Origin: Candidatus Omnitrophota bacterium
Lineage (GTDB): Bacteria; Omnitrophota; Gorgyraeia; Pluralincolimonadales; Pluralincolimonadaceae
DNA length: 64,000 bases
Direction: 5' to 3'
Assembly (NCBI GenBank): GCA_041651455.1
Contig: JBAZJG010000002.1
Location: forward strand, 49,431-113,430
The translations under genes were made by a program, and so were the position numbers. The notes beneath the pieces are model-generated. The model did no database searches. It had not been told where the DNA came from and saw only the letters and a list, made by a program, of their open reading frames with translations. Position 1 is the first letter of the stretch. Every line of letters starts with the position of its first letter. Of this stretch, positions 41,044-62,982 are shown piece by piece.

Positions 41044-41062
41044 GGTGAAGGAGGTGTTGAAT

Positions 41063-42094: not shown

Positions 42095-43282
42095 ATGAAG
42101 ACAAGCTTCGCGGTATTATACGCCTTGGTCATAATAATCCCGACGGCGCTGCTTGCGTATTTCGGGCTGCTGGCGGTGCGAAGCGAGAAGTCGATCGTCG
42201 AGAGGAACATGATGCAGAAGTACGAGGCGATGGCAGGCCTCGTGGAAGGCGAGTTCAATAAAGCGCTTTCGGAGGCGCAGAAGGACCTTCTCGATAACCC
42301 GAAATACGTCGAGCATATGATCATAGAGCAGTCGGCGATATTCAAGGAAGACGTCGCGATACTCGACATGAACGGTAAGTCGCTCAGCGACGAAAGGGGA
42401 TCGGGACCGGTCTTCGTAAAGCAGGTAAAGGGATTTCCGTACCAGATAGCGGTATACGAGCGTTACCCGGTGGTCCTCAGCAAGATAAACGAAAGGCGGC
42501 AGAACCTATCCTTATATATCGGCATCATATATATATCCGCGTTCATGATATTGAGCGGGGCATTCGTGACGCTCTGGGCATTGTCGAGGCAGTGGAACCT
42601 GGCGCACATGAAGAACGAGTTCGTCTCGCACCTCGCGCATGACCTGCGCAGGCCGCTTACTTCGATACGCATGTTCTCCGAGATGCTGAAGACCGGGCGT
42701 GTCGCGGACGACGGGAAAAGAGCGGAATATTACGGCATAATATCGAACGAAAGCGAGAAACTCACGTTGCTCGCGAACAATATACTCGATTTTTCGCGCA
42801 TAGAGATGGGGCGCAAGAATTACAGGATAAAGAAGGAAGACATCGCGCGCATAGTCAACGAGACGGTGGACAGGTTCAGGTCGTATATGGTCGACGTCCC
42901 GCGCCAGGTCTCCGTGGACATCGAGGAAGGCCTTCCGCCGGTAAACGCCGACGAGAGCGCGATATCGCAGGTCGTGATGAACCTGCTCACGAATGCGGCG
43001 AAATATTCCTCGCAGGACAGCATCATCAGCGTTAAAGTCGCGCGGACGGACAGGAGCGTCGCGGTCAGCGTCGTCGACCACGGCATAGGCGTCCCGAAGG
43101 GCGAGTTGAAGAGGATATTCAGGAAGTATTACCGCGTCGAGCAGGACAAGGTCTCATCCACCGAGGGAAGCGGCCTCGGGCTCACGCTCGTAAAGTATAT
43201 CGCGGAAGCCCACGGCGGGCAGATACGCGCGGAGAGCGAAGAAGGAAAGGGCAGCAGGTTCACGCTGATATTACCGGTATGA
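42095..43282 (+). CDS. Sensor histidine kinase (2 TM, HisKA plus HATPase_c)
   Basis: H-box FVSHLAHDLRRPLTSI; N, G1 and G2 boxes (NLLTNAAKY, DHGIGVP, GSGLGL). Confidence 0.85.
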   Translation: MKTSFAVLYALVIIIPTALLAYFGLLAVRSEKSIVERNMMQKYEAMAGLVEGEFNKALSEAQKDLLDNPKYVEHMIIEQSAIFKEDVAILDMNGKSLSDERGSGPVFVKQVKGFPYQIAVYERYPVVLSKINERRQNLSLYIGIIYISAFMILSGAFVTLWALSRQWNLAHMKNEFVSHLAHDLRRPLTSIRMFSEMLKTGRVADDGKRAEYYGIISNESEKLTLLANNILDFSRIEMGRKNYRIKKEDIARIVNETVDRFRSYMVDVPRQVSVDIEEGLPPVNADESAISQVVMNLLTNAAKYSSQDSIISVKVARTDRSVAVSVVDHGIGVPKGELKRIFRKYYRVEQDKVSSTEGSGLGLTLVKYIAEAHGGQIRAESEEGKGSRFTLILPV

Positions 43283-43306
43283 GGGTGTCCCCCTTGAGGA
43301 TGGCTC
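43281..43306 (+). repeat. REP-like element copy (gagggtgtcccccttgaggatggctc)
   Basis: Differs at two positions from the 37469-37494 copy; sits at the stop of the kinase gene. Confidence 0.6.
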
Positions 43307-43312
43307 TGAAGA

Positions 43313-43987
43313 ATGCATAAGATACTGGTAGTCGAAGATGACAGGAACATACTGAAGGGGCTCGTCGACAACCTTGAGATGGAGGGCTATAAGGTCGTGA
43401 CGGCTCCGGACGGCGAGGCCGCGCTCAGGAAGGCGAAAGAGGCCGCGCCTGACCTGGTCATACTCGATATCATGATGCCGAAGATGAACGGTTTCGACGT
43501 ATGCCGGCAGCTTAAGGCGAAAGGCAGCACATTGCCTATAATAATACTCAGCGCGAAGGCGCAGGAAGCCGATAAAGTGCTCGGCCTCGAACTCGGAGCC
43601 GACGATTATGTTACTAAGCCCTTCAGCCCCAGGGAACTGCTTGTCAGGATAAAGGCGGTGTTGAGGAGGGCCGGCGCCCCGGCAAAGGTCAAGGACGTCT
43701 ATGATCTTGGCGGCATCAGGATAGATTTCAGCAAATACCTTATATATAAGGAAGGTAAAGAGGAGAAGCTCACCGCCGCGGAATATAAGATACTGAAACT
43801 GCTTATTGCCAACGAGGGTGAGCCGGTCAGCAGGCACACGATACTGGCGGAGATCTGGGGCGAGGACGTCACATCCCGCACGGTCGATACCCATATCTGG
43901 AGCCTGAGGGAGAAGATGGAGGAGGATCCGGGGAAGCCGAAGCACATCATCACGGTGCACAGGATAGGGTATAAGTTCGTGGAATAA
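43313..43987 (+). CDS. Response regulator, OmpR/PhoB family
   Basis: Receiver motifs (DLVILDIMMP) plus a winged-helix Trans_reg_C (TVDTHIWSLREKM). Confidence 0.9.
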   Translation: MHKILVVEDDRNILKGLVDNLEMEGYKVVTAPDGEAALRKAKEAAPDLVILDIMMPKMNGFDVCRQLKAKGSTLPIIILSAKAQEADKVLGLELGADDYVTKPFSPRELLVRIKAVLRRAGAPAKVKDVYDLGGIRIDFSKYLIYKEGKEEKLTAAEYKILKLLIANEGEPVSRHTILAEIWGEDVTSRTVDTHIWSLREKMEEDPGKPKHIITVHRIGYKFVE

Positions 43988-44007
43988 TAGATTATTACGG
44001 AGGATGC

Positions 44008-44880
44008 ATGAGGCGGATACTATTTTTTATTATGATGTTTATTGCTTTAGGGTGGCTCCGAGCGGGATGGTCCCTTCCGGGGGACGCTGCGCAGCCCCAG
44101 GATTATGTCGTGGCGACGGTCGGGAATGAGAAGATAATGTTCTCAGAGATACAAAAAGCGGCGGAGGGGCTGAACAGGTTCCTGAAAGAGAACTTTAGCG
44201 GGTACAGGGAATACAGGCTGGATTTTATCAGGCAGTATGTGGCCAGGTATGCCTTGGCAAAGAAGGCGCTCAGGGAAGGCCTGGACAAAGATAAGGATGT
44301 CCAATACTCCATCGAGCAATCGAGGAGGACGATACTATCCGATAAGCTGATTTCGGAACGGTTAAATAAAGTGGAATTCACGCAGGAAGACGTAAAAAAA
44401 TATTATGAAGAGAACAAGGAGCGTTACAAAACCCCCGAAAAAGTGAAATTGAGCTATATAAAGAAGAGCGGCAAGGCTGAAGCGGAGAAGATATCCGCGC
44501 GGCTGAATAAAGGGGAGAGCTTCGAAAAGGTCGGCCGTAAGGAGATCGTCAAGCTGGACAAGTGGATATCCGCAGGTTCGCTGCCGGAAGTGCCGGACCT
44601 GCTGAATATCGACCAGGCCTCGCTTAACCGGGTGGTATCGCTCGGCGTAGGAGGGTGCAGCCAGGTCATAACGATACCGGAAGGCCTTGCCCGGAAGGAG
44701 ATGTACTTCATATTCCGCGTTGACGCAAAAGAGGCGGCGAAGGATAGGCCGCTCGAGGAAATCAGGGGACAGGCCGAACTCGAATATGCGGGTATGTTAA
44801 GGAACAAGATCGTGAACGAAGTCATTATGGAAACCTTTAAGGAAGAGAAGGTCTCCATAAACGAAAAGGAAATAAAATAA
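44008..44880 (+). CDS. Periplasmic peptidyl-prolyl isomerase/chaperone, SurA/PpiC (parvulin)-like
   Basis: Signal peptide, SurA_N-like helical region and a parvulin-like segment; moderate resemblance only. Confidence 0.5.
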   Translation: MRRILFFIMMFIALGWLRAGWSLPGDAAQPQDYVVATVGNEKIMFSEIQKAAEGLNRFLKENFSGYREYRLDFIRQYVARYALAKKALREGLDKDKDVQYSIEQSRRTILSDKLISERLNKVEFTQEDVKKYYEENKERYKTPEKVKLSYIKKSGKAEAEKISARLNKGESFEKVGRKEIVKLDKWISAGSLPEVPDLLNIDQASLNRVVSLGVGGCSQVITIPEGLARKEMYFIFRVDAKEAAKDRPLEEIRGQAELEYAGMLRNKIVNEVIMETFKEEKVSINEKEIK

Positions 44881-44905
44881 AGGTGTCCCCCGGGTGCATG
44901 GCCCC
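44881..44905 (+). repeat. REP-like element copy (aggtgtcccccgggtgcatggcccc)
   Basis: Shares the GGTGTCCCCC core with the other REP copies; immediately follows the stop codon. Confidence 0.5.
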
Positions 44906-44911: not shown

Positions 44912-44933
44912 CTTGACAGTTTCTTGACAGTTT
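44912..44933 (+). repeat. Tandem duplication of an 11-bp -35-like box (CTTGACAGTTT x2) upstream of the giant gene
   Basis: Read from the sequence. Confidence 0.5.
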
Positions 44934-45000
44934 ATTGAGATGGGGATGACAACAAAATACGAAGGATATGGCATGCTTGTAGCAGACAAAGGAGCTTACA

Positions 45001-48000
45001 ATGAATAAGCCGAAAACAGGGCAAGGTTACCGGTTTACTACAGTTGTATTGAGCTCGATACTTCTGCTGCTGAGCAGCGCCTATCTTTATATGGTATGGG
45101 CGGTAGAGACGAAGGCATGGGATTTCGCGACCGCTTCGGATTATACCGTGTACAAAGGAGACGGCAGCGAGGATACCGATAACGACTATATAATTGTCGA
45201 CGAAGGCGTCGCGAAGCTAGTCGCGCAGCTCGAGACGGAAAGCGACGACAGCCTTTCCGAATACGCGCAGGGCACGAAGTCATCCACGGTGACCGGCCCG
45301 GACACGAGCCTTGTCCTTACAAAGTCAGGCGGGGTGTATAATTCCACCGGCGAATACACATCGCGGGTTTTTGACGGCGGGGCAGGCGGGAACGTATGGA
45401 CGGCAGTAAAATCCTCTACATTTAACACGAATAACCGGGGCGGAGTTAGATGGGCTTTCGAGAACGGCCCGCTTACCGGATATGCCGTACTTTTGAACCG
45501 CGGAACGCAGTTCGATGCTAGTGCTATTTATTCCCCGTCCGTCATCAAAGACGGCGAGACATATAAGATGTGGTACACAGGAAATGTAAATAGCGTCTAT
45601 CGTATTGGTTATGCCACGTCCACCGACGGTTTGAACTGGACAAGGGTCGATGGGCCTCAGCAATATCTCTCCGTAATTAATATTTCGACAGACAGATTTG
45701 ATAAAAACCACGCAGGTTTTCCGTCCGTCATCAAAGACGGCGAGACATATAAGATGTGGTATTCGGGCTATAACGGCGAGTTCTGGCGCGTAGGCTACGC
45801 GACCTCCCCGGACGGGATAAACTGGACCAAATACGACGGCCCGGAAGCCGATTTGTCGGTACTGGACGTGAGTCTAGGCAGGTTCGACAGCGCCCATGCC
45901 TATGCCCCTACCGTCATAAAAGACGGTTCCGTTTACAGAATGTGGTATATGGGATTTGACGGAGACATCTATCGCATAGGCTACGCGACATCCCCTGACG
46001 GGATAAACTGGACCAAGGTTAACGGATATATGAGCGGCGGGGCGGTACTTGAGCCGGGACTCGACTTCGAATCGGGAGTCGTATATTATCCGTGCGTAAT
46101 AAAAGACGGATCATTTTATAAGATGTGGTATTACCAGACAGGGGTGATCAATTATGCCTTTTCCCCGGATGGGATAACATGGACAAAGGTAAACGGCCTA
46201 GCAAGAGTAGGAGGCGTCCTGGAGTACTATAGCCCTTACCAATTCTGCTCTAACTACTGCTCCTATCCGTGCGTAATAAAAGACGGTTCCACCTACAAGA
46301 TGTGGCCAGGCGGTAACGGCGTGGCTTTTGGCTATGCGACCAGCACGGAAGATACGATAGATACGACCTGGACGTATTTCCAGGTTCGATCCGGAACGAC
46401 GGCGAATCTGACCGATGGTTTTGTCGGGCCGGACGGCACGAGTGCCACTTACTATCCCGGCAATTACCACAAACTGGTTTCTGCGGGAAATTTTAACACT
46501 TCCCATCGCTACGCGCAGTTCAAGTTGTATATGTATACTTCAGGCGGCGGGCTCAATACCCCGGTCGTGGATTGGGCGGGTTTTACGGGCACTAAGGTAA
46601 ACCGTATAGACGATACGCTTTCGGATTTCAGTTCCGGGAGCTTTACGTCAAACACGACCACCCTTCCGGTCTCGGTCCAGACGCCTTTTGTCGGGTTGGC
46701 GCAAAAGGATAACGGCGAATACAACGCGGTCGGGTCATATACCAGCCGCGTATTCGACGGAGGGGACGGGGCCGTGTGGAACTCCATCGCGTGGACGAAA
46801 GGCATGAGCGCCATAGACCCGTCGGAAGAGACCGGGCTTGTGGGGTTGTATCACTTTGACAGCAGTGCCGCCGACTCGTCGGGACACGGGAACGACGGGA
46901 CGTGGACCGGTGCGCCCGCATATGATACTACGAACCAAAGGTTCGGCACGGGATGTTTTAAAAATAATGGCGGGGCTAATTATATAACGCTCCCGCTGTC
47001 CGATACCCTGAAGAGGATGGACGCTTTCACGTTTTCTTACTGGACCATGTATGATTTCGGCGAGAACAGTGCATTTTCGGTGGGGCTTTATGATAGCAGG
47101 AACACAAGCAAACAGGATATTTCCATTCAATCCTATGTAAACAGTGCGTATTTGTACGCCAGGGACAGGCAGCTTAACGCATTTGTCCACCTGACTAGCA
47201 GCTATCAATTATCATACTGGCTCTCGTACTATAAGGAATGGCAGCATATCGCCGTGACGTGGGACGGCGGGCCTGTTCCCCAGTCATTTGCCGTATATGT
47301 AAACGGCATCCAGCTCAACGTTGACTCCAAATATATTACCGATTCCTACAGCGCTTTCTACAAAATAAGGGAACTGCTATATCCTATCGAAATAGGCCAT
47401 TGCTATACTCCGAGCGCAGACAGGTATTTTTCGGGCTATGCGGACGAGATTGCGATATATAACAGGGCGCTCTCGGCCGATGAGATACTGAGGTTATACC
47501 AGAAGGGTGCCGGCATAAAGTTCCAGTGCCGCTCGTCTGCGACAAACCCTCCGACCGGGAATTTCGTAGGCCCGGACGGGACCGCGAACACGTATTACAG
47601 TACGGCGGCAGGTTCGAATTTCGGCGCCGAGATACCAGCCAACAGGTATTTCCAGTACAAGGCATATTTCGAGGGCTGCAATAGCAATACACCCGCGCTC
47701 GAGAGCGTGAAGGTGACGTATAACACTTCTTCGGATTTCACGGATGACAGCCGCAGCGAATTTGACGAAGGAAGCTACGACAACTCAAAGACGAAGTGCC
47801 ATTTGCCGGGAGTCTCCATCGAGAATACATATAAGGCAGGCGTGCTCCCGACGCCGGACGACGATCCGGGGCTTATAGCGCTCTATCATTTTGACGGGGA
47901 TCTCGTTGACGCGTCGGGTAACGGCCACAACGGCACGCTATATGACCCGAATAATTACATGCTATTCTTACCCAACTCGAAGGTAGGTTCATACGCATTT

Positions 48001-51000
48001 TATCATGGAAGCCAAAGCTATACGTATTATGCCAATCTCGGAACGATCGATACACCCGCGGATATGTCGATATCTTTCTGGTATAGGCCGGTTGGGACAG
48101 CGAGCGGTCCGCGCATACTCAGTGATTACAGTTCGGTAACAGGAAAATTCCAGAAGGATATAAGCTTCAACGCCGGAGACAGGCTCTGCTTTTCCCAATA
48201 TCATTCCGACGGTTCAGCCGTAAACGTTTATGCGGATTATGTAAGTATGAACAAATCTTTCCGCTGGCAGCATGTCGCTATCATAAGGGATGATACCGCG
48301 AAATCCATCAGGCTTTATGCCGATGGAAAGCTTGTCGGCACGTCCTATTATCCGGGAAAGACGGTCCTGCCGATCTCGGACGCCGGGGACCTGTATATAG
48401 GGCAGTACGGCAATCTTGTATCAAATTCTTACCAGTATATTTGCAGTATCGATGAGCTTGCCATATACAACCGTGTCTTGACCGAAGAAGAGATAATGAG
48501 TAAAGCGGGCATGCAGTATGTGCCGGGGGAAGGCAAGACATTTGCTTCAAGGACAATGGATGCCGGCCTTGCTGTCGACTGGAGCCGGGTCCTTTGGGGC
48601 GAGAATACATCCGGCTACGGCAACGGCCTGAACGGGACGCCGGTAACGGGCCAGGAGATCCAGGCCGACGAAAAGGGCCTTGTAGGATTATGGCACTTGA
48701 ACGGAGATTGGATCGATGTCATGGGCAGGAGGAACGGCACCCGTTATGGCACTACGGCCTTTGATTCGACGGGACAGAAGCTTGGTTCTGCGTGCGACAC
48801 GTTTGACGGAAGCACTCAGAGCGTGCTTTTCGGGAATATCGGGAGCACTATAAGGACGGTAGAATTTTGGCTTAATTCTACAAGTTATAATTGCTCGGTC
48901 ATGGAACTCAAGGATAACGATAACTATATAGGTATAGGGTATGTATCCTACTCTGATACGCGATATATAAAATTGACCGGCACGCCGTTGAGCTCGGGAA
49001 CCATCTATGTAAACGGGGATGTATACGGGCAGGCGAAGATAAATCCCGGCTGGAACCATGTCGTTATCGTTACGACCTCAGACATACCGGCCTCATCTAT
49101 GAGGCTCGGTGAAGCAGCCAACGTCTATTATAACGGCAAGCTCGATGAAGTTGCCGTATACAACCGTATTCTTTCACAAAGCGAGGCGAGGCAGCATTAT
49201 TTCGACCAGACCGGCGACGGCGGGCTGGTAGCCTTGTGGCATATGGACAACGACTGGACTGATGCCACCGGCAAGGGCCATGACGGTACCGCTTACAACG
49301 GAGCAACCTTTACCTCTGATTCAAAATTCGGAGCGGCGGCTGGAAGCTTTGACGGGACGGACGATTACGTAGTATTCAATGATGCCGATTTCCCGAAATA
49401 TTCCGGCGTGATGACCATCGAGGGATGGTTCAAGACTACCGCGGCGGCCAACCAGGCGATATTTTCCTATGGGACACCTGCGAATTCATTCAGCGTCCTT
49501 CTCTATATAGACGGCTCCAACACTCTCAGCAGTTACGCTTACTGCGTGCAGAGTCCGACCTTAGGGACCAGTTACACTAATATCCAGGCTAACGATGGGC
49601 AATGGCACCATTTTGCGGATGTCATGAGGTTCTACGACAGGCAAACCTCGGGCACGAGGATGTACCATTTCTTATATTTCGACGGGGAATACAGGAGTCA
49701 GTCTATTTGCTATACCTTGAGGGATACCGGAAGCGGCATATGGGTCGGTGCCCGCCCGGACGGGACGATGCCGTTTAACGGAAGCCTGGATGAGATAGCC
49801 GTATACAGCAGGTATTTGCATGGGCAGGAGATTGCGGACCACTACCTGCGCGGTGTGAACGATATAAAGATGCAGGTCTCGACTGACGGAGGAACTACCT
49901 GGAAAGACAACGAGGGCAGCGCCGGTAGCTATATAACCGAGACGCCCGCGTCGCTTAGCCTCGGCGGTCCTTCGCAGACCATAAAGTACCGCGCGACGCT
50001 ATCAACAACCGATTACAGGTACAGCCCGTTACTGAGGGGCGTAGATTTCAGCAAAGCGAGCTACCCGACCGACGACCCGTACGTGATACCCGATGCCGGG
50101 CAGGAGTATATAGGCTACCTGACATCGTTCACGCAGACGGTAGGCTCGAGGAACCTGGGCACGATCAAATACCTGCTTTCGAACGACGACGGTTCGACCT
50201 GGTACCGCTGGGACGGCTCCAACTGGGTCTCGACGACGTCAGGTTATGTCGCCGCAAATACGGCATCCGATATCAACACGAATATAGGGCAGTTCTACGA
50301 AGACGTCGGCGCCGGGACTCTCAACTTCAAGGCGTTCCTGCATTCAGACGGCATACAGCCCGTAGAGCTCGATAACGTGAGCCTCGGATATGCCCCGGGC
50401 AAGATAACGGTCACGACGCCGAACGGCGGCGAAACACTGCTGTCGGGCGGTTACGCCGATATCAAATGGACCGCCGCGGGTACCATAGCAAGCGATACGT
50501 GGGACCTCGCATATTCCACGGACGGCGGCTCGAATTGGACTCCTATAGCCGCCAACCAGTCAATAGCGGCCGTGGAAGGTGTATATACGTACAACTGGAG
50601 CAGCATACCTAATGTCCAATCGGTTACCACAAAGGTCAAGGTCACTAACAACGCGGAGAACAGCATACACGATGCTTCTAATGCCAACTTCACGCTGGCG
50701 CTCGGTTTCCAGGTGACCGCGCCGAACGGCGGGGAGAAATGGTATGTAGGCTCGAGCGGTAATAATATCCAGTGGAAGTCCTCGAGCGGCATGGGCACGA
50801 CGGTGCGACTGTATTACACGCTCAACGGCACCGATTATACCGCTATAACGACAAGCACGTCTAACCAGTATTCGGGCGTCAACACATACGCGTGGACGAT
50901 AGGTTCTTCGGCCTCGGACGACGGCCTTTATTCGGAAACCGCGAAGATAAAGGTGACGAACCAGAGCGGGCAGAATGAGGACGCCTCCGACGCCGTATTC

Positions 51001-54000
51001 ACCATGGCGGGCATGAAGCTTATCCAGCCGAACGGGAGCGAGCAGATAAAGAGGGGCGGAAGCTATGAGATACAGTGGAAGTCTGCCGGCGCCGGCAGTA
51101 CGGTAAAGCTGGAATATTCCACCGACAGCGGCGAGACCTGGAACACGATCACCGAGAGCGAATCCAATTCCGCCGGCACAGACAGCTATGAATGGAACGT
51201 TCCGGCCGGTTGCGAACTCTCCTCAGAGGCGAAAGTAAGGATAACTTCAAACAGCGACGCGAACCTGACGGACGCCTCGGACGGGATCTTCACGATCGCC
51301 GACCTTATTGTAAACTCCCCGAACGGCGGAGAGATATGGCAGGCGGGCAGTACGTCGAACCCGGTAACATGGGTTTTTGTCGGCTCTGCCGGCGTCGGAA
51401 AGGTTACGGTATCCTACTCTACCGACAGCGGCTCGACGTGGACGGTATACAATAATAATGTCGATAACCAGCAGGGGCCGAACAGCTACAACTGGACAGT
51501 CCCGTTCGCCCCGTCGGACAATATCAGGGTCAAGGTTGTGGACAATACGTCCGGCTCGACGATGGCGGACAGCTCCGACGGCAATTTCAGCATAGCGGGC
51601 GTTAAGGTGACGCTGCCGAACGGCTCAGAGACATACGGCATCGACAGCGCGAACTTCATCAGGTGGTCCGCAAATAACGCGAGCGATACCGGTGCGATCT
51701 ATTATTCGGTGGACGGCGGTTCTACTTGGAGCGCATCCCCGATAGTAGGAGCCGAAGAGGTATTGCTGAGCCAGGGCGCTACCGGTTTCAGCTGGACGCC
51801 TTCGAACGATCCGGGAACGGTTCCGACGGTCCAGGCGAGGGTCAAGGTTGTCGCGTTGACGCCGGCATCCGATGCGAATCCTCCGGTGCCGTTGACGCTG
51901 CCGATGGAAGACAGCTCTGACGCGAACTTTACTATACGGGGCCTGAGGGTCACGGCGCCGGCATTGAACGCCAGCTGGCTGCTGGGAAGCTCGCATGATA
52001 TCCAGTGGACCTCTGCAGGCACGACCGCCGAGACCGCCACATTGTACTATTCCGTCATCGGCGATTTCTCGGACCAGGTAGCCATAACGGCGACGCCTGT
52101 CACTAATAATGAGATATATCCCGGCAATAACAGCTATACATGGAATATTGGAGCGTCGGTCACCCCGTCGGCGACAGCGAAGATAAAGGTGACGGCGGGC
52201 GCTTATAACGCCCTGTCCCCGGCCTTCACATTGAAGGGCATAAAGGTCACTGCGCCGGCATCGGGCGCGACCGTGACACAGAACGTCGCTTCCTCGGTGA
52301 TATGGAGTTCGGCAGGGATTGACGGCAACGTCAACATATATTACAGCAGCGACAACGGCTCCACCTATTCAGAGACGCCTATAAACGCATCGCCGATAAA
52401 CATCACAGCCGGCACATATTCCTGGACGCCGAACACGGCGATACTGACTCCTTCAACGTCCGCGAAACTCAAGATACAGGTTGTCTCCGGTTCTGATTCG
52501 GGGCTTTTCGCGGAATCGGCGCAATTCACCCTGAAAGGCATAAAGATAAGCGCGCCTGCGGCCGGGACGACATGGGAACTGGGCCAGACCCAGAGCATAA
52601 CATGGACCGCGGCGGGGGTGGGCTCCACATGCAATATATATTACGCGGCTGACGGGACGAATTTCACAAGTACCGTCAATAGCTCGGCCGTACTGCTCTC
52701 CGCCGGGACATATTCCTGGACTATCCCGGCGTCGATTACGCCGTCGAACGGCACCGCGAAGATCAGGATAACCTCTGATACGAACGTTTCCTCGAGTTCC
52801 GGAGCGTTCACGATAAAAGGTATCAAGGTTACGAACCCTACCGCCACCACGATATGGGAAGTCGGGGAATCCGTGACGATATCGCACGCGGTTGTCGGAG
52901 CATTGAGCGCCCTTAATGTATATTACGTGAAAGACGGGATCGAGACCCAGATAGGCACGGTTATGCCTAACAGCAGTTTCCCCTGGGTCGTCACTGCCGA
53001 CGCGGAGGGGCCCGGTATCATAATCAGATTGAAGAGCTTCATGCCGAATTATACCGGCGACTCCCCGGCGTTTCAGATAGTCGGCGAGGCGTCTCTGGCC
53101 GTCAGCGAGCCGTCAGCAGCGTCCTCGTGGAAGGTCTCGGAGACGAATACCATAACCTGGACGAGGAGCGGCAGCACCGAAAGGACGTTTACCGTGGAGT
53201 ATGACGATAACGCGGCTTTCACCTCGCCCACGCCGATAACCGGCACGCCGGCGTATGACGGCGCGGGGCTATACAGCTTGGATTGGGCTGTCCCGGATAA
53301 CGTAGGTACGTGCTACATAAAGGTCACCGATACCGGAAATTCCAATATTACGGATATCTCCGAGGCGTTTAAGATAATACCGAAGTTCAGGGTCAATATA
53401 CCCAACGGCGGCGAGACGCTCTACGCGCTCAAGCCCGGTACGACCGTCAACTGGGGAACGACCGGAAGCGCGGGCACAGTGGACCTGTATTATTCGACGG
53501 ATACGCCCCTGTACGAGACATGGACAAAGATCAATTCCACGGCTATCCCCGATAACGGGACTGGGACCGTGGAGAGGATAACCAGCTACTCCTGGACCGT
53601 TCCGAATATCCAGAGTACTGTTGTCAAGATAAAGGTCCAGGCGAGCAGCGCGGGCCTGTCCGGGGCCTACGATGTCTCGGACGACGTGTTTACAATCAAG
53701 TATTATAAGGTTACATGGAACGTGAAGAGCGCGACGACCGGGGATCATCTCGACAAGCTCTTCGTCATAGATTCATCCGGTTGGTCGGAAGCAGACCTCA
53801 CTTCGCCGATCGAGCGTTATTACCCGTACGGCGATTCATACAACACGAACTGGTCGAGGGCGGACTATTTCGATAAGGCCGAACGCGGATGGGAGACCGA
53901 CCAGGACAACAAAGTGATCAATATAACGATGAGCGAGTCCTCGCTGGCGCCCGAATACCATGTCATGAGCAACTTCTCGTATAACGCCTCGCAGGACAAG

Positions 54001-55644
54001 TTCCTTATCAACTCCTGGGTCGAGAGGGGCGGCGTAATACTGGCAAAGCCCTCGTCGTGCGTAGTCCATATTTATGACGCGTCGGGCGGCCCGATACAGC
54101 AGCTTACGGCGACAACGTATGACGCGAACGGCGTCTTCTGGCAGGAATGGCCGACGACGAACCTTGACCAGAACGCGATGTATTTCGCGAAGGTCGACAT
54201 CGTCTACTCGGGAGAGACATATTCGTCGGGTTTGAGCTATTCGCTTAACATACCGAAGGCGATAGCGGGCCTCGGCACGACAGTCGCCCAGCAGCTCACG
54301 GACCTGCAGACGGCGATAGGCACGGACCTCGCCACACAGACGACCGCGATAGGCGCGAAGATAGACACGCTCGAGACATCCATAGGAACGAACCTCGACG
54401 CGAAGATCAGCACCGTCAAGACGGATATCGCGGCGGTCAAGACGGTCGTTGACAAGATATCGGAGGATGTAGGCGCGATCGGAGGCGACCTCGCCACGCC
54501 GATATCCGAAGCGGTCGCCGAAGACCTCGCAGCGCAGCTTGCGAAAGGCATCCAGGCCGAGATACTCACGAGGCCGACATCCGCGGGATTCGGCACTGCT
54601 ACAGATATCAGGTTCAGGACCGCGACCGGCATGTCGCCGACCATAACAGTTTACGACGCTAATAATGTCGCGAGGATCGCGGCGGCGGCGATGGTAGAGG
54701 TCGGCACCACCGGTATCTATGAATACGCGCTGACGCCTCAGAGCGCATGGGGCGCGGGCGAATATACGGTGGTCTGCGAAGAGCCCACTAAGAACGCGAT
54801 AGACAGCATGGTGCTCAGCGTCTCCGAGAGCGTTGGGGCGGGCGCAGGCACCGACGAAGGCATGGTCAACTCGATCAACGCGACGGTCACGACGATAGAT
54901 TCGAACGTGAAGACGATGCTTTCCAAGGTCAACACCCTTCCGGATGACACGACCGACGTAGGCACGTCCGTTTCGAGCCTGCTCGCTACGGTCGGCAAGA
55001 CCACCGATGCGGCCGGCACCAATACGCTGTTCGGGAAGATAGCTTCGGCGCAGGGCGATATAACTGCCTTTAAGGCCGATATAACCAATTATGTCGACGG
55101 GGTCGAAACGACGCTCGGCACGACGGCCGATGCCGCCGGGACGAATACGGTCTACGGCAAGATAAGGTCGCTCGAACAGACGCTCAGCGCTTTGGGCCCG
55201 GACGGGGCAAAGGCTAACAAGGAGCTCCTTGCGGCGAAGGACCAGGCCGCGGCGGCCTCCAAGGCGGCTGAGGACATAAAGAAGATGATAGCGGCGGGCG
55301 GCAAGAATGCCGAAGCTTACGGAGCACTGCAGAAACTTGCCGGAGACCTCGCGAAACTGCAGGCCGCAAACTCCAGGATAGGCAGCTCGGTGACCGCTGA
55401 TTCTATCACCGATTTTATCAGGGACACAAGGGCGAAACTCGCGCAGGTCGCGATGAAGGAGGGCTACGATAACCTCGTCCCCGAGACCGGCGAAGTCGGC
55501 CAGGTCAACCTTACAGAGGAAGCCGATGTCGAAGACCTCAGGAACAACATGACCGAACTCAAGGCCCTGCTGTCGCAGGTCAGGAGCCTGCTCGACAAAC
55601 AGGTCAACGCGCCTGTCGTCAAGAGCTGGATAGAAGGCAAATAA
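45001..55644 (+). CDS. Giant (3547 aa) membrane-anchored surface protein. Five-bladed propeller-like repeats, about four LamG/concanavalin-like domains, about 14 Ig-like PNGGE...W repeats (Kre9/KNH-like), and a C-terminal coiled-coil/fibre-like region
   Basis: N-terminal TM. Five P(S/T/C)VIKDG.(T/S)YKMWY...IGYATSPDGINWTK blades. G(L/V)(V/I)(G/A)L(Y/W)H(F/L/M)(D/N)(G/D/S)...(G/D)...GHNGT LamG-like starts repeated four times. Repeated (V/I)TAPNGGE.W..G....I.W...G and LYYS.DGG.TW modules. Ala/Thr-rich heptad-like C-terminus. Confidence 0.8.
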   Translation: MNKPKTGQGYRFTTVVLSSILLLLSSAYLYMVWAVETKAWDFATASDYTVYKGDGSEDTDNDYIIVDEGVAKLVAQLETESDDSLSEYAQGTKSSTVTGPDTSLVLTKSGGVYNSTGEYTSRVFDGGAGGNVWTAVKSSTFNTNNRGGVRWAFENGPLTGYAVLLNRGTQFDASAIYSPSVIKDGETYKMWYTGNVNSVYRIGYATSTDGLNWTRVDGPQQYLSVINISTDRFDKNHAGFPSVIKDGETYKMWYSGYNGEFWRVGYATSPDGINWTKYDGPEADLSVLDVSLGRFDSAHAYAPTVIKDGSVYRMWYMGFDGDIYRIGYATSPDGINWTKVNGYMSGGAVLEPGLDFESGVVYYPCVIKDGSFYKMWYYQTGVINYAFSPDGITWTKVNGLARVGGVLEYYSPYQFCSNYCSYPCVIKDGSTYKMWPGGNGVAFGYATSTEDTIDTTWTYFQVRSGTTANLTDGFVGPDGTSATYYPGNYHKLVSAGNFNTSHRYAQFKLYMYTSGGGLNTPVVDWAGFTGTKVNRIDDTLSDFSSGSFTSNTTTLPVSVQTPFVGLAQKDNGEYNAVGSYTSRVFDGGDGAVWNSIAWTKGMSAIDPSEETGLVGLYHFDSSAADSSGHGNDGTWTGAPAYDTTNQRFGTGCFKNNGGANYITLPLSDTLKRMDAFTFSYWTMYDFGENSAFSVGLYDSRNTSKQDISIQSYVNSAYLYARDRQLNAFVHLTSSYQLSYWLSYYKEWQHIAVTWDGGPVPQSFAVYVNGIQLNVDSKYITDSYSAFYKIRELLYPIEIGHCYTPSADRYFSGYADEIAIYNRALSADEILRLYQKGAGIKFQCRSSATNPPTGNFVGPDGTANTYYSTAAGSNFGAEIPANRYFQYKAYFEGCNSNTPALESVKVTYNTSSDFTDDSRSEFDEGSYDNSKTKCHLPGVSIENTYKAGVLPTPDDDPGLIALYHFDGDLVDASGNGHNGTLYDPNNYMLFLPNSKVGSYAFYHGSQSYTYYANLGTIDTPADMSISFWYRPVGTASGPRILSDYSSVTGKFQKDISFNAGDRLCFSQYHSDGSAVNVYADYVSMNKSFRWQHVAIIRDDTAKSIRLYADGKLVGTSYYPGKTVLPISDAGDLYIGQYGNLVSNSYQYICSIDELAIYNRVLTEEEIMSKAGMQYVPGEGKTFASRTMDAGLAVDWSRVLWGENTSGYGNGLNGTPVTGQEIQADEKGLVGLWHLNGDWIDVMGRRNGTRYGTTAFDSTGQKLGSACDTFDGSTQSVLFGNIGSTIRTVEFWLNSTSYNCSVMELKDNDNYIGIGYVSYSDTRYIKLTGTPLSSGTIYVNGDVYGQAKINPGWNHVVIVTTSDIPASSMRLGEAANVYYNGKLDEVAVYNRILSQSEARQHYFDQTGDGGLVALWHMDNDWTDATGKGHDGTAYNGATFTSDSKFGAAAGSFDGTDDYVVFNDADFPKYSGVMTIEGWFKTTAAANQAIFSYGTPANSFSVLLYIDGSNTLSSYAYCVQSPTLGTSYTNIQANDGQWHHFADVMRFYDRQTSGTRMYHFLYFDGEYRSQSICYTLRDTGSGIWVGARPDGTMPFNGSLDEIAVYSRYLHGQEIADHYLRGVNDIKMQVSTDGGTTWKDNEGSAGSYITETPASLSLGGPSQTIKYRATLSTTDYRYSPLLRGVDFSKASYPTDDPYVIPDAGQEYIGYLTSFTQTVGSRNLGTIKYLLSNDDGSTWYRWDGSNWVSTTSGYVAANTASDINTNIGQFYEDVGAGTLNFKAFLHSDGIQPVELDNVSLGYAPGKITVTTPNGGETLLSGGYADIKWTAAGTIASDTWDLAYSTDGGSNWTPIAANQSIAAVEGVYTYNWSSIPNVQSVTTKVKVTNNAENSIHDASNANFTLALGFQVTAPNGGEKWYVGSSGNNIQWKSSSGMGTTVRLYYTLNGTDYTAITTSTSNQYSGVNTYAWTIGSSASDDGLYSETAKIKVTNQSGQNEDASDAVFTMAGMKLIQPNGSEQIKRGGSYEIQWKSAGAGSTVKLEYSTDSGETWNTITESESNSAGTDSYEWNVPAGCELSSEAKVRITSNSDANLTDASDGIFTIADLIVNSPNGGEIWQAGSTSNPVTWVFVGSAGVGKVTVSYSTDSGSTWTVYNNNVDNQQGPNSYNWTVPFAPSDNIRVKVVDNTSGSTMADSSDGNFSIAGVKVTLPNGSETYGIDSANFIRWSANNASDTGAIYYSVDGGSTWSASPIVGAEEVLLSQGATGFSWTPSNDPGTVPTVQARVKVVALTPASDANPPVPLTLPMEDSSDANFTIRGLRVTAPALNASWLLGSSHDIQWTSAGTTAETATLYYSVIGDFSDQVAITATPVTNNEIYPGNNSYTWNIGASVTPSATAKIKVTAGAYNALSPAFTLKGIKVTAPASGATVTQNVASSVIWSSAGIDGNVNIYYSSDNGSTYSETPINASPINITAGTYSWTPNTAILTPSTSAKLKIQVVSGSDSGLFAESAQFTLKGIKISAPAAGTTWELGQTQSITWTAAGVGSTCNIYYAADGTNFTSTVNSSAVLLSAGTYSWTIPASITPSNGTAKIRITSDTNVSSSSGAFTIKGIKVTNPTATTIWEVGESVTISHAVVGALSALNVYYVKDGIETQIGTVMPNSSFPWVVTADAEGPGIIIRLKSFMPNYTGDSPAFQIVGEASLAVSEPSAASSWKVSETNTITWTRSGSTERTFTVEYDDNAAFTSPTPITGTPAYDGAGLYSLDWAVPDNVGTCYIKVTDTGNSNITDISEAFKIIPKFRVNIPNGGETLYALKPGTTVNWGTTGSAGTVDLYYSTDTPLYETWTKINSTAIPDNGTGTVERITSYSWTVPNIQSTVVKIKVQASSAGLSGAYDVSDDVFTIKYYKVTWNVKSATTGDHLDKLFVIDSSGWSEADLTSPIERYYPYGDSYNTNWSRADYFDKAERGWETDQDNKVINITMSESSLAPEYHVMSNFSYNASQDKFLINSWVERGGVILAKPSSCVVHIYDASGGPIQQLTATTYDANGVFWQEWPTTNLDQNAMYFAKVDIVYSGETYSSGLSYSLNIPKAIAGLGTTVAQQLTDLQTAIGTDLATQTTAIGAKIDTLETSIGTNLDAKISTVKTDIAAVKTVVDKISEDVGAIGGDLATPISEAVAEDLAAQLAKGIQAEILTRPTSAGFGTATDIRFRTATGMSPTITVYDANNVARIAAAAMVEVGTTGIYEYALTPQSAWGAGEYTVVCEEPTKNAIDSMVLSVSESVGAGAGTDEGMVNSINATVTTIDSNVKTMLSKVNTLPDDTTDVGTSVSSLLATVGKTTDAAGTNTLFGKIASAQGDITAFKADITNYVDGVETTLGTTADAAGTNTVYGKIRSLEQTLSALGPDGAKANKELLAAKDQAAAASKAAEDIKKMIAAGGKNAEAYGALQKLAGDLAKLQAANSRIGSSVTADSITDFIRDTRAKLAQVAMKEGYDNLVPETGEVGQVNLTEEADVEDLRNNMTELKALLSQVRSLLDKQVNAPVVKSWIEGK
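45535..45575 (+). repeat. 41-bp exact direct repeat (second copy at 45721-45761) inside the propeller region of the giant gene
   Basis: ccgtccgtcatcaaagacggcgagacatataagatgtggta occurs twice, 186 bp apart. Confidence 0.8.
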
Positions 55645-55650
55645 AGCAAT

Positions 55651-55679
55651 GGGGACACCCTGTCTCTCAGGATGTCCCC
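55651..55679 (+). repeat. Palindromic REP-like element (GGGGACACCCT-N7-AGGATGTCCCC) just after the giant gene's stop
   Basis: Imperfect 11-bp hairpin with arms related to both halves of the REP copies that flank the transposase. Confidence 0.6.
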
Positions 55680-55695
55680 GATAACGGAGGATGAA

Positions 55696-56265
55696 ATGCG
55701 TAAAATTTTTTTAACCACTTTCTCATTTCTTTTAATAATGACGGTAGTTTCTTCCGCGGCGGCCGCGGAGGTAGTGCTGAAGATACGCGCGGTAAACCCG
55801 CTGGAGAAGCCGGCGGAGACGGTCGTCAAGGAATACCTGCCGAAGGGCGTTACGGCAAAGGACGTCATAAACAAGGGTAAGTTTAAGATAGAATACGACA
55901 AGGCGAAAGACCTGTATTATGCCGAGCAGAAAGTCACACTAAAGCCCAAGGAGGTCCTTGTCCTGCAGGTCGAGGTGAAGGACGTATGGGTCGTGCCGGC
56001 GAAGAAGATCGACGCGCTGAGGGCGGAAGCGAAAAAGGCATACGCATCCAAGCCCGCAGACGCAAAGGGCTCAAAGACCGCGGATGACCTTTTCGCCGAG
56101 ATAAACAAGACGCTCGACAAAGTGGAAGCGCGCCAGCCGCAGAACACGATAGCGAAGGCGGGCGCGGAAGCGCATATGGAAGAATACTGGAAGGACGTCG
56201 AATCGATAAAACAGGCGGAGTCGGACATTAAACTCGTGAAGCTCCTGAATGAAAAAAAGAAATAG
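55696..56265 (+). CDS. Secreted protein carrying one copy of an uncharacterised roughly 150-aa periplasmic domain (paralogous to the sensor domains of the downstream diguanylate cyclase)
   Basis: Start moved to the ATG at 55696, which has a GGAGG Shine-Dalgarno. Signal peptide. VVLKIRAVNP...YLPKGV...D.W.V core shared with 56249..58132. Confidence 0.5.
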   Translation: MRKIFLTTFSFLLIMTVVSSAAAAEVVLKIRAVNPLEKPAETVVKEYLPKGVTAKDVINKGKFKIEYDKAKDLYYAEQKVTLKPKEVLVLQVEVKDVWVVPAKKIDALRAEAKKAYASKPADAKGSKTADDLFAEINKTLDKVEARQPQNTIAKAGAEAHMEEYWKDVESIKQAESDIKLVKLLNEKKK

Positions 56266-58132
56266 CTTACTGATCATAGCGCTTATGATGTGGGCTTCGG
56301 CGGCTCAGGCGGGCGTCGTCCTGAAGATGACCGCCGAGAACCCTTCCCAGTACGAATCGCGCGATGTCTCGGTAAGGTCGTTCCTGCCTTCGGGTGTGAA
56401 ACCGGAGAATATAATAAATAACGGCGGGCTTGAGGTCGCCTATGACGTCAAGCAGGGGAAATATTATGTCTTCAAGGACGTAAAGCTCGGCCCGGAAGAG
56501 AGCGTGACCTACGAAATAGAGGTCGAGGACATATGGAGGGTAGATGAGGCGTATCTCGCCTCGCTGACCGCGCATGCGAGGGACCTCTCCGAAAAGCTCA
56601 GGAGGACGGAATATTCTGCGGTCGCCTCAAAGCTTAATGAGATAGTGGCTTCCGATGCCGCCGCGATACTGAAAAAACAGGATGCGTCGGGCACCGATAA
56701 GGTCGCGCCGGTCGAGCATATAAACGCCTACGAGGCGAATAAGGCCCTGCTCGACAAGATGCGCAAGGATATAGGGACGATGGAGAACCTCGTGATAGGG
56801 CTCGGGAAGGACGCCGGAAAGATAATGGGCGAAAGCTCAACGGGTTCGCGTTCGCTCGATGAGGTTTCCGCCGAGGCGGGCAGGAGCATAGAGTCCTCCG
56901 GCCTTGTCGGACAATCATCGCCGGGTACCGGAAAGCCAAAGACAATAACGCTCAAGATAGAGGTAACCAACCCGTCGAGAACGGAAGCCCGCAGGATCCC
57001 GGTTAATTATTACCTTCCTCCCGAGATCCGCAAAGATGATATAGTCGACGCGAAAGAACTCGAGCCGCGCCTTGATATCGAGAGGTCGGTATATTATATG
57101 CACCATCCCGGCGTGGAGCTCGGTCCAGGCGAGAGCAGGGTCTTCGAGATAACGGTGAAGGACAAATGGTCGGTAAGCGAACAGGTCCTACAAGCGCTCA
57201 AGAAGCAGGCGGAGGCCCTTACGGAGCTTGCCTCCTCGACGAAGGCCGATCCTGCGGTGGAAGCCCTTGCGAAGGAAGTGACGGAAAAGATAGACGCCAT
57301 ACTCGGGAAACAGGCGTCGCTGTCCGACACGTCGGAATATTACTCGCAGCAGCAGCAGGTCGCCGAGATACAGAGGTCGATAGGGAAGATGGAAGGGCTT
57401 TTGAAACAGGCCGGCGTCAGCGAAGAGCGCCTCAAGAAGATCCAGGATATTATGATAAAGGGCAGGTCCGATTACGGCACGGGCCCCGACCCTAAGGGCG
57501 TAAAGATGCTCGCGGGCACGATATTCAAGGGCAAGGCGCCGTCCACCGCCACGACCTGGAAGATAATATATATTATCCTCATATGTCTCGGCGTCATGAG
57601 CGCGGTATTCTACTTCTCGCAGGTAGAGCAGAGGCAGATGACGCTCTTCGACCAGCTGACAGGCGCATTCTCGAGGAAATACATAAACGAGAAGATAAGG
57701 GAGGAGGTAAAAGTCGCGAAAGCCGCAGGGATCGAATGTTCGCTGCTGCTGATAGACGTCGATAAGTTCAAGAACATCAACGACACTTACGGGCACGCGG
57801 TCGGCGACGTCATACTAAAGGAGTTCGTCATCGCGCTCAGGAAAAGCATACGCGCCACAGACCCCGTCGGAAGGTTCGGCGGCGATGAGTTCCTCGTCGT
57901 GCTCCCGACGGCGAACAAGGTAAAGGCGGCTGATATTGCCGAGAGCATTCGGAAAACCATCGAGGGTCACATAATAAAGATGGAGGACAAGGCCTACAGC
58001 GTCACCTCGAGCATCGGCGTCGCGACATATCCCGGCGACGCGGGTACGGCTGACGACCTCTTCAATAAGGCGGACAAGGCGATGTACGATTCGAAGGCGA
58101 AAGGCGGGAACGCGGTGACCGCGAATGTTTAA
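56249..58132 (+). CDS. Diguanylate cyclase (GGDEF) with a periplasmic sensor region built from two copies of the same uncharacterised domain, then one TM
   Basis: Signal peptide; VVLKMTAENP... and TLKIEVTNP... repeats; TM IIYIILICLGVMSAVFYF; GGDEF domain with GGDEF motif (RFGGDEFLVV). Confidence 0.85.
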   Translation: MKKRNSLLIIALMMWASAAQAGVVLKMTAENPSQYESRDVSVRSFLPSGVKPENIINNGGLEVAYDVKQGKYYVFKDVKLGPEESVTYEIEVEDIWRVDEAYLASLTAHARDLSEKLRRTEYSAVASKLNEIVASDAAAILKKQDASGTDKVAPVEHINAYEANKALLDKMRKDIGTMENLVIGLGKDAGKIMGESSTGSRSLDEVSAEAGRSIESSGLVGQSSPGTGKPKTITLKIEVTNPSRTEARRIPVNYYLPPEIRKDDIVDAKELEPRLDIERSVYYMHHPGVELGPGESRVFEITVKDKWSVSEQVLQALKKQAEALTELASSTKADPAVEALAKEVTEKIDAILGKQASLSDTSEYYSQQQQVAEIQRSIGKMEGLLKQAGVSEERLKKIQDIMIKGRSDYGTGPDPKGVKMLAGTIFKGKAPSTATTWKIIYIILICLGVMSAVFYFSQVEQRQMTLFDQLTGAFSRKYINEKIREEVKVAKAAGIECSLLLIDVDKFKNINDTYGHAVGDVILKEFVIALRKSIRATDPVGRFGGDEFLVVLPTANKVKAADIAESIRKTIEGHIIKMEDKAYSVTSSIGVATYPGDAGTADDLFNKADKAMYDSKAKGGNAVTANV

Positions 58133-58352
58133 CGTCTCCGTAATGGACCACGCCCAGGTGATATTCGAGGGCAAGGCCGCGAGCGTGATCCTTCCGGGAG
58201 ATTACGGCGAGTTCGAGATCCTTGATTTCCACAGGCCCATATTGAGTCTCCTCAAAAGAGGCATAATAATGATAGACGGGGTAAGTTTCCCGGTGGCAAA
58301 GGGTATCGCAAGGTTCCATAAGAACGAATTGGTAGCATTAGTGGAGCTCTGA
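58125..58352 (+). CDS. atpC: F-type ATP synthase epsilon subunit (N-terminal beta-sandwich domain only, 75 aa)
   Basis: Pattern VIFEGKAASVILPGDYGEFEILDFHRPILSLLKRGII matches the epsilon N-terminal domain. Confidence 0.65.
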   Translation: MFNVSVMDHAQVIFEGKAASVILPGDYGEFEILDFHRPILSLLKRGIIMIDGVSFPVAKGIARFHKNELVALVEL

Positions 58353-58353
58353 C

Positions 58354-58566
58354 ATGCGCAATTTCATAATAATACTCGTTATGTTCGTCGTGATACTCGG
58401 CCCTTCCGCCGTGATAGCGGCAATAGGGTTCGCCGCGATACGCGCGCTCGGGCGCAACCCGTCGGCCGCGCCGAAGATACTACCCGCGATGATAATTGCG
58501 CTGCTTTTCGCTGAAGCGATAGCGGTCATAGCGATGCTGATAATGTTCCAACTGTTCGGAAAATAG
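58354..58566 (+). CDS. atpE: F-type ATP synthase c subunit (70 aa, 2 TM, conserved carboxylate in FAEAIA)
   Basis: Two-helix hairpin with an RNPSAAPK loop and an E in helix 2. Confidence 0.65.
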   Translation: MRNFIIILVMFVVILGPSAVIAAIGFAAIRALGRNPSAAPKILPAMIIALLFAEAIAVIAMLIMFQLFGK

Positions 58567-58578
58567 CCGGAGGACTGG

Positions 58579-60742: not shown

Positions 60743-62982
<2,240 letters not shown>

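Follow-up and report, generated by a model that had tools for sequence, protein, structure and literature searches.

LapA of Pseudomonas is a giant, repeat-rich adhesin that is exported by a type I secretion system (T1SS), carries RTX repeats and no Sec signal, is retained by its N-terminus in an outer-membrane pore and is released by a protease, and LapD is an inner-membrane receptor of cyclic di-GMP (c-di-GMP) that signals inside-out. Giant surface proteins are common in uncultured bacteria, and beyond the T1SS, autotransporter and sortase paradigms the way in which they are held is mostly unknown. In the Omnitrophota, giant genes are reportedly preceded by genes resembling those of type II secretion systems (T2SS) and type IV pili and by a Rotamase_2 isomerase gene, and have been linked to c-di-GMP components (West-Roberts et al., 2023; bioRxiv 10.1101/2023.11.21.568195); the text of that report, as searched, describes neither a C-terminal module nor a docking partner. 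Here we analyse a window of 64,000 nucleotides (nt) from a Candidatus Omnitrophota bacterium (assembly GCA_041651455.1, contig JBAZJG010000002.1), in which a giant gene at 45001..55644 on the + strand encodes a real, exported multidomain protein of 3547 amino acids (aa) in an uncultured member of the Planctomycetota-Verrucomicrobiota-Chlamydiota (PVC) group. This protein is probably a giant fibre or adhesin with an exchangeable lectin-like head, a shaft of immunoglobulin (Ig)-like domains and a base that docks on membrane proteins encoded downstream, an interpretation that we hold with moderate confidence.

The locus has in common with the Omnitrophota giant-gene loci a PVC-group host, upstream secretin or T2SS-like genes together with a Rotamase_2 isomerase gene, and downstream genes tied to c-di-GMP. 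It differs in that the protein has 3.5 rather than over 10 thousand residues, in that multiple transmembrane helices and SecA-like, peptidase or dockerin-like parts are absent, and in that the downstream genes encode proteins with a domain that we name DS instead of small PilZ proteins (PilZ gave no match in the downstream proteins even at E<=1); the upstream resemblance is also partial, no GspE or GspF having been found in the window. Like LapA/LapD/LapG, the locus pairs a giant repeat-rich adhesin with an inner-membrane c-di-GMP protein that has a periplasmic domain, but here there is a Sec signal, the base is C-terminal, the partner is a cyclase and the RTX and T1SS components are missing (no RTX Pfam match, and no T1SS genes among the window reading frames scanned). 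Giant adhesins as a kind are already known, and what is new is the variant of anchoring, consisting of base, tail and DS partner, which is absent from Pfam, NCBIfam and the Protein Data Bank (PDB).

Domain architecture and the conserved C-terminal base

The giant gene is a single unbroken open reading frame (ORF) with an ATG start and a GGAG 8 nt upstream of it. We take the gene to be real because an independent megahit contig (L002; ENA sample ERZ27247363) contains the same 10,644 nt with 0 mismatches and because collinear full-length orthologues are present in four other assemblies, with proteins of 3549 (L010), 3577 (L005, labelled Candidatus Omnitrophota), 3590 (L004, labelled Planctomycetia) and 3636 aa (P0277, JGI). 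The comparison covered five related loci from genomes and nine from metagenomes, with flanks read to at most 10 kb from the C-terminal module. The distant L012, L014 and L015 proteins have 3575-4100 aa and the same order of parts as here, namely signal peptide, N-terminal beta module, LamG domains, Ig array and C-terminal module (C-module), and their Ig arrays are ~35% identical to that of the window protein along the entire array. An earlier interpretation of this DNA (the sequence-only reading) is partly supported overall: the giant multidomain protein that it proposed, with a 3547-aa ORF and this order of domains, is confirmed, and the assembly artefact or split ORF that it wished to see checked is ruled against by the identical contig and the orthologues.

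The C-terminal 648 aa (aa 2900-3547; 53698..55641, +) form a conserved module, delimited by profile search and AlphaFold2 domains, for which nothing significant was found in Pfam, NCBIfam, PHROGs, PDB sequences or 50,697 phage genomes. A word-index search with the C-module returned only 5 relatives, and an alignment of 10 sequences gave the same five. A profile search of 1.84 billion cluster representatives (clusters at 50% identity) returned 781 proteins, of which 444 reach E<=1e-10 and 270 reach E<=1e-30. No protein matches this profile better than that of the window, in which the ~630-position module ends at the last residue. Most of the proteins found have 2000-6900 aa with the module at the end, and among 128 representatives nearly all carry it to within 0-8 residues of the stop codon. 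The tails of these 128 representatives define an amphipathic helix and an extreme tail (L.N...ELKA......LLD...N.PVV..W.E..; 55525..55641, +) with the consensus L-(L)-D-x-x-x-N-(K/E)-P-V-(V/I)-x-x-W-(F/L/Y)-E, in short N-K-P-V-V-x-x-W-F-E. At locus L001 the same C-module closes a protein with a different upstream part (LamG, FN3 and other repeats), whose apparent split is a scaffold gap. Where members carry a label, it places them in metagenome-assembled genomes (MAGs) of Kiritimatiellia, Planctomycetota, Omnitrophota, Verrucomicrobiota and Zixibacteria. Judged by its profile matches, the C-module defines a large family of giant proteins that has so far gone undescribed and comprises at least 270 clusters. 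The helical base is enlarged by many ~20-aa repeats (AKTDTINWxxVTG...) in some members, such as P0005 (a Zixibacteria MAG) and proteins of the L012/L014 type; some members also hold a second, partial copy of the module, and the length of the base varies between lineages. No C-terminal sorting signal (PEP-CTERM or other) was detected with the NCBIfam and Pfam sorting models, and the protein ends in ...NAPVVKSWIEGK with no transmembrane segment.

The AlphaFold2 model of the base (6 sequences, mean predicted local distance difference test score (pLDDT) 54) contains a confident beta-sandwich (aa ~2984-3084), a 72-residue helix (aa 3086-3157), a confident Ig-like domain (aa ~3189-3276) and several low-confidence helices. 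The hydrophobic residues of the long helix recur with a period of 3.65 (power 3.7, against 0.93 +/- 0.23 in shuffles), which is hendecad-like rather than heptad-like (3.5). The sequence-only reading had placed here a continuous Ala/Thr-rich heptad region; its helical nature stands, but an Ig-like domain interrupts it and its period is not that of a heptad. Foldseek matches of the base model were generic Ig or macroglobulin sandwiches with TM-scores of 0.11-0.14, and were discarded as uninformative. The shaft that precedes the base (aa 1802-2900; 50404..53700, +) consists of 11 tandem Ig-like modules of a Kre9_KNH-like type. One copy (aa 2519-2605) passes the Pfam Kre9_KNH cut-off (31.6 bits against 24.6), and the other ten are recognised only by a self-built hidden Markov model (HMM), which identifies exactly 11 copies (E 1e-22 to 1e-36) and none elsewhere in the protein. 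A tandem array of such modules had been correctly anticipated, though its number had been put too high, at about 14.

Probable downstream partners and natural fusions

The giant gene is followed by a gene for a small exported protein of 189 aa (55696..56265, +), composed of a signal peptide, one DS domain and a helical region. This gene probably starts at ATG 55696, after the ribosome-binding site GGAGG, and its place downstream of the giant gene is kept in L004, L005, L009 and L010; an exact look-up of the protein gave no record. Overlapping it by 17 nt is a gene (56249..58132, +) for a bitopic diguanylate cyclase with a signal peptide, two DS domains with helical regions, the juxtamembrane motif IFKGKAPSTATTWKII, a transmembrane helix and, directly after this helix, a GGDEF domain (Pfam and NCBIfam) in which the GGDEF and RxxD (I-site) motifs are intact. 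The DS domain comprises ~85 aa and is common to all three periplasmic units of the two proteins, with the consensus S-V-V-L-K-x-x-V-x-N-P-S...Y-L-P...Y-D...Y-Y-V...L-x-P-x-E...D-x-W followed by a helical stretch; a search with its profile gave no PDB match at E<=10 and no consistent one in Pfam.

In at least 11 of the best 150 representatives of the C-module family, the reading frame continues past the tail, through a constant 2-residue linker, into one or two DS domains, with no signal peptide before DS, and the fused proteins continue to the same juxtamembrane motif and transmembrane helix. In one example, ...EPVIKTWFESG passes directly into SVVLKMVVVNPS... On these sequence features the fused forms are true gene fusions. 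The in-frame joining of tail, DS and transmembrane helix, together with the DS genes located directly downstream of the giant gene, suggests that the base docks on DS membrane proteins. Separate partners are also encoded downstream in distant relatives: L008 (34% C-module identity) has a 247-aa protein with signal peptide, DS domain, helical region and transmembrane helix, and L013 (31%) and L016 (29%) have 455-aa proteins with two DS domains and a transmembrane helix.

An ATP synthase operon (58579 onward) follows directly after the giant gene and its DS partner, and the same arrangement is seen in L004, L008 and L013. This chromosomal position is unusually stable, being kept in relatives at only 31-34% C-module identity. 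In L013 the DS partner gene is separated from the ATP synthase genes by an IS200/Y1-like gene (4572-5483), 35% identical to the one in the window, which recalls the pairing of REP and Y1 sequences described below.

The putative lectin-like head and its exchange

In the first 34 residues (45001..45102, +), which resemble a signal peptide, a basic n-region and a hydrophobic core precede a VWA|VE site, and in distant orthologues canonical signal peptides of the AxA type occupy the equivalent place. The segment is accordingly more likely to be a cleaved Sec signal peptide than the membrane anchor that had been assumed from the window sequence. A type IV pilin-like signal was considered and rejected, since position +5 is not a Glu and the G-F-T-L-I-E pattern is missing.

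Next comes a five-bladed beta-propeller (aa ~165-455; 45493..46365, +), GH130/DUF377-like and lacking the GH130 catalytic Asp, that was characterised with Pfam, alignment, AlphaFold2 and Foldseek. Its blades recur with a period of ~186 nt and have the consensus P-x-V-I-K-D-G...Y-K-M-W-Y...I-G-Y-A-T-S-x-D-G-I-x-W-T, the VIKDG motif being present in each (aa 181, 243, 305, 366 and 425). The AlphaFold2 model (35 homologues) is five-bladed with a predicted TM-score of 0.79; pLDDT is mostly >90 in blades 1-4, dips to 71 between blades 3 and 4 and is low in blade 5. The best PDB match is the GH130 phosphorylase 9fj8 (Foldseek E 7.5e-16, TM-score 0.69), GH130 structures in general matching at TM-scores of 0.6-0.7, and GH43, GH32 and GH117 structures come after them. 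Motif count, model and PDB matches thus all bear out the five PxVIKDG blades and the GH43/GH32-like propeller of the sequence-only reading. The propeller falls in an extensive group, with more than 4200 matches, of 'GH43/DUF377-like' domains that have regular blades and occur in proteins secreted by uncultured bacteria. The fold is that of glycoside hydrolase (GH) family 130, but the Pfam GH130 (PF04041) score of 25.2 bits is below the 26-bit cut-off, and the GH130-related NCBIfam equivalogs give 29-33 bits against the 450-550 required. In a HMMER alignment to 4onz, GFPS (F240) stands opposite the EDPR motif, whose Asp we take to be the catalytic acid of GH130, and where this Asp would stand the other blades show S, A, Y or Y. 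These comparisons give no support to an active site of the GH130 type, and a non-catalytic, lectin-like role of the propeller appears more likely.

Fold and blade motif are shared with GH130/DUF377 propellers in general; apart from the low score and the replaced Asp, the difference lies in the unusual regularity of the window blades, which are homogenised by gene conversion. Blades 1 and 2 contain an exact 41-bp duplication (45535-45575 and 45721-45761, +), found by sequence comparison and interpreted as a gene-conversion tract, and over this stretch the other three blades are 68-76% identical, so that the identity is far above what shared peptide sequence alone would lead one to expect. In L010, blades 1 and 2 have in common an exact 33-mer that differs from the 41-mer of the window. 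The two different exact tracts indicate that the blades undergo concerted evolution by gene conversion, and both the duplication and the intragenic recombination that had been read from it are upheld. Variation in length or phase, which had been expected to follow, was not observed: there are five blades in both relatives in which they were counted (L004 and L010), and the number of Ig repeats is unchanged in all five orthologues examined (no 100-aa indels).

Four LamG/ConA-like domains follow the propeller (aa ~610-835, 955-1170, 1224-1400 and 1406-1616; 46828..49848, +). Pfam Laminin_G_3 matches in four stretches with 158.4 bits (cut-off 27.6), and start motifs of the LVGLYHFD type and end motifs of the DEIAIYNR type recur four times each, in agreement with the four domains originally proposed. 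Small beta-sandwich modules stand between the LamG domains. The motifs G-x-Y-T-S-R-V-F-D-G-G...W (aa 119 and 580) and R-Y-x-Q-(Y/F)-K...T-P-x-(V/L) (aa 503 and 882), located at 45103-45492, 46366-46830 and 47515-47860 of the window, resemble the two halves of such modules, and the propeller and one LamG domain appear to be inserted into split beta-sandwich modules, for which there was no Pfam match. From its domain families the head is probably glycan-binding and lectin-like.

DNA and aa comparison with L004 delimits an exchangeable head cassette (aa ~88-1612; 45264..49836, +) that includes the propeller and the four LamG domains. The two loci are collinear, with 88% DNA identity over 42864-43981, 82% over 44912-45263 and 88.7% over 49837-62000, and across 45264-49836 there is no DNA similarity save for two short stretches of ~68-69%; at the protein level identity to L004 is ~45% in the head and 92-100% in the remainder. 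L010 is more distant overall (80.6% DNA identity) yet has the head type of the window (78-83% aa identity). The neighbouring isomerase gene (44008-44880) has no counterpart in L004 and shows 50% identity in L005 and 75% in L010, the regulator gene before it being 87-94% identical. As L004, with its close flanks, differs in the head while the more distant L010 keeps the head type, these comparisons indicate that the head plus isomerase moves as a cassette, independently of genome relatedness. P0277, with unchanged repeat number, is 40-55% identical to the window protein over aa 1-2300, 70-80% over 2300-2900 and 86-95% over 3000-3547, and such a gradient of conservation from N- to C-terminus agrees with a head that is distal and variable and a base that is proximal and constrained. 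A diversity-generating retroelement was rejected as the source of head variation, since divergence is global and extends beyond adenine-coded sites, and the window ORFs scanned showed no reverse transcriptase.

Upstream genes and probable regulation

Seven closely packed genes on the + strand precede the giant gene over 37880-44880, with spacings of -23, -14, +1, 0, 30 and 20 nt. They encode an AAA_22 ATPase (37880-38749; Pfam), for which the best NCBIfam model, the PEP-CTERM-associated TIGR03015, scores 170 bits and is below cut-off; a PilP-like protein (38727-39425); a secretin (39412-41043; Pfam Secretin, Secretin_N and STN, NCBIfam GspD/PilQ); a coiled-coil/TPR lipoprotein-like protein (41045-42094; Pfam TPR); a membrane histidine kinase (42095-43282; Pfam HisKA and HATPase_c) with two hydrophobic segments that enclose an outside loop of ~120 aa; an OmpR-family response regulator (43313-43987; Pfam Response_reg and Trans_reg_C), for which a look-up returned only the same contig; and, within the variable cassette, an exported parvulin-type peptidyl-prolyl isomerase (44008..44880; Rotamase_2/SurA_N-like in Pfam) with an N-terminal signal-like segment. 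The two-component pair adjoins the giant gene in L004, L005 and L010 as well. A functional link between the AAA_22-secretin genes and the giant gene is suggested by gene spacing and the literature.

The 120-nt gap before the giant gene holds three direct repeats of (C/A)TTGA(C/G)A in 11-bp phase (44912..44944, +), identified by TRF and by conservation as a probable operator that overlaps the -35 region. The tandem CTTGACAGTTT at 44912-44938 has a TRF period of 11 and 2.5 copies, and L004, L005 and L010 preserve the hexamers while differing in the spacers; the repeat element of L004 comes directly after the regulator gene. Direct repeats in 11-bp phase are the expected footprint of winged-helix regulators of the OmpR/PhoB type, and the element is a probable operator for the adjacent OmpR-type regulator. 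The duplication at 44912-44938 had been noticed before and read as tandem -35-like boxes, for which a triple repeat of the OmpR type is the better description.

Intergenic repeats and other features of the window

Between the giant gene and the 189-aa gene lies a hairpin resembling repetitive extragenic palindromic (REP) elements (55651..55679), made of the core GGGGACACCC and an imperfect inverted copy, with 12 pairs and a 5-nt loop. It has no T-run on the + strand and is for this reason not a + strand terminator. Its arm carries the core of a 25-nt GC-rich element, GGAGCCATCCTCCGGGGGGACACCC, which occurs at 36773-36797 (+) and 37472-37497 (-) as inverted flanks of an IS200-like Y1_Tnp gene (36868-37452), and diverged copies of the 25-mer are present at 43282-43306, 44881-44905 and 55651-55679, all of them intergenic. 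The hairpin site is variable: a full inverted doublet of the 25-mer occupies it in L004, and in L009 and L010 there is none. The REP hairpin first proposed for this position is real, its arm carrying the core of the repeat that flanks the transposase gene, and it seems reasonable from this arrangement to see in it a REP/RAYT-like system of a PVC-group genome, with the transposase as a candidate REP-associated tyrosine transposase (RAYT).

Elsewhere in the window, positions 1-4700 have a GC content of 0.34-0.43, compared with ~0.56 outside them, and may be a foreign island; ORFs at 199-765, 1277-2041, 2302-2952, 3577-4146 and 4159-4671 in this region are without Pfam match. An 821-aa protein with a GspK/pseudopilin-like N-terminus and a LamG-like region is encoded at 11345-13810, and a 251-aa protein resembling carbohydrate-binding modules (CBM) and ending in a PEP-CTERM motif at 14711-15466. 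A cellulose or beta-glucan utilisation cluster (15610-30383) contains a GntR/LacI-type regulator, a GH94 cellobiose-phosphorylase-like protein, CBM30 proteins, a GH9 protein, a 960-aa GH39-like/CIA30 protein, an extracytoplasmic function (ECF) sigma/anti-sigma pair and a GH3 protein with PA14.

Proposed mechanism and alternatives

We propose that, after Sec export, the C-terminal tail (...N-x-P-V-V-x-x-W-x-E) would hold the fibre on the periplasmic DS domains. Docking may take the form of strand addition beside the first DS strand, a mode suggested by the natural fusions, in which tail and DS are joined by a two-residue turn. The single transmembrane helix of the partner would anchor the assembly in the cytoplasmic membrane and, with a diguanylate cyclase as the anchor, the state of attachment could feed into c-di-GMP. 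Folding is probably assisted by the dedicated periplasmic prolyl isomerase, and transcription is probably controlled by the adjacent OmpR-type two-component system via the three 11-bp-phased repeats. The adjacent secretin may pass the fibre across the outer membrane; this is the weakest step, being derived from operon packing and from the report on Omnitrophota giant genes.

Several observations weigh against a fibre docked in this way. Adjacency is not universal: a sizeable subfamily (L012, L014 and L015) keeps the tail and has no downstream DS gene, glycosyltransferase-type genes being found there instead, and it also lacks secretin, isomerase and two-component genes in the ~2.4 kb visible upstream. 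GGDEF output was seen in the clade of the window alone, partners elsewhere being plain membrane anchors, and there are no GspE, GspF or pilin genes near the secretin in the window. Docking is proposed here from sequence features; the model of the base is poor, with the tail drawn as a low-confidence helix; and glycan binding by the head is deduced from domain families. Finally, a tether in the inner membrane has to be reconciled with a fibre >80 nm long that would reach the surface of a diderm cell.

The giant protein could instead be a freely secreted exoprotein that degrades or binds polysaccharides as part of a cellulolytic apparatus, with an active GH130/GH43 propeller, LamG and Ig domains that would bind carbohydrate or act as spacers, and no specific anchor. 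Such a role would suit a window rich in glycan genes (GH9, GH94, GH3, CBM30 and the PEP-CTERM CBM protein) and a propeller whose fold matches GH130, GH43 and GH32 enzymes, and the source labels of homologues read 'predicted GH43/DUF377 family glycosyl hydrolase'. We nevertheless consider it unlikely, given the GH130 score below the 26-bit cut-off and the replacement of the EDPR Asp by Phe240 and by S, A, Y and Y in the other blades. A conserved 648-aa base, an invariant tail and in-frame fusions to a transmembrane anchor would moreover be senseless in a free enzyme, and the head is replaceable while the base is conserved.

It is likewise doubtful, and in our estimate improbable, that the protein is a periplasmic or envelope scaffold, S-layer-like or sheath-forming, that is tethered to the inner membrane, binds glycans of its own envelope through the head and never reaches the surface. 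The inner-membrane anchoring of the partner, the periplasmic location of the DS domains and the absence of an outer-membrane anchor or known sorting signal all agree with a scaffold, and the top Foldseek match of the base is an S-layer protein, but at a TM-score of 0.13 and among matches that are generic Ig sandwiches. Judging from domain counts, 11 Ig domains, helices and head would extend well beyond the periplasm, and replacement of the head as a cassette between related genomes is a typical trait of parts that bind ligands outside the cell.

A phage-derived tail fibre or a stalk of the trimeric autotransporter type, to which the C-terminal region had been likened, is very improbable. The likeness consists of long Ala/Thr-rich amphipathic helices with periodic hydrophobic residues, broken by small beta domains, of recurring short motifs such as NTLFGKI, and of a modular plan in which the distal, binding part varies and the proximal part is conserved. 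It does not extend to sequence homology, a beta-barrel anchor or phage context: there was no PHROG family match, no tblastn match in the 50,697 phage records, no match among PDB sequences and, for the entire protein as well as its C-terminal pieces, no Pfam family of YadA-type anchors, stalks or heads. The N-terminus has a Sec signal and the C-terminus is helical with no beta-barrel, no phage genes are nearby, and synteny with the ATP synthase operon is kept in distant relatives. An assembly chimera, collapsed repeats or an ORF that is split in the real genome, conceivable for a repeat-rich gene of metagenomic origin, can be dismissed almost with certainty in view of the identical 10,644 nt on the independent contig, the full-length collinear orthologues of 3549, 3577, 3590 and 3636 aa, and repeat copies that, at 25-45% protein-level identity, are too diverged to collapse.

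Implications for the giant-protein family

The exchange of the head cassette against a background of 88% identity points to a probable strong diversifying pressure, exerted by substrates, hosts or phages. A more speculative extension, to which we give little weight at present, is that C-module and DS domain together form a new PVC-type system of envelope anchoring and sensing. The lectin-tipped fibre would be threaded outward, perhaps by way of the adjacent secretin, its last strand would dock on a periplasmic DS domain of the inner-membrane cyclase, and ligand binding or pulling at the head would be passed on to c-di-GMP synthesis, the protein acting as an outside-in mechanosensory adhesin. 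As the membrane partner is a cyclase, signalling of this kind would be the reverse of the LapD logic. The locus provides a concrete docking hypothesis for a widespread family of giant proteins, and its cyclase partner suggests a direct link between attachment and c-di-GMP signalling.

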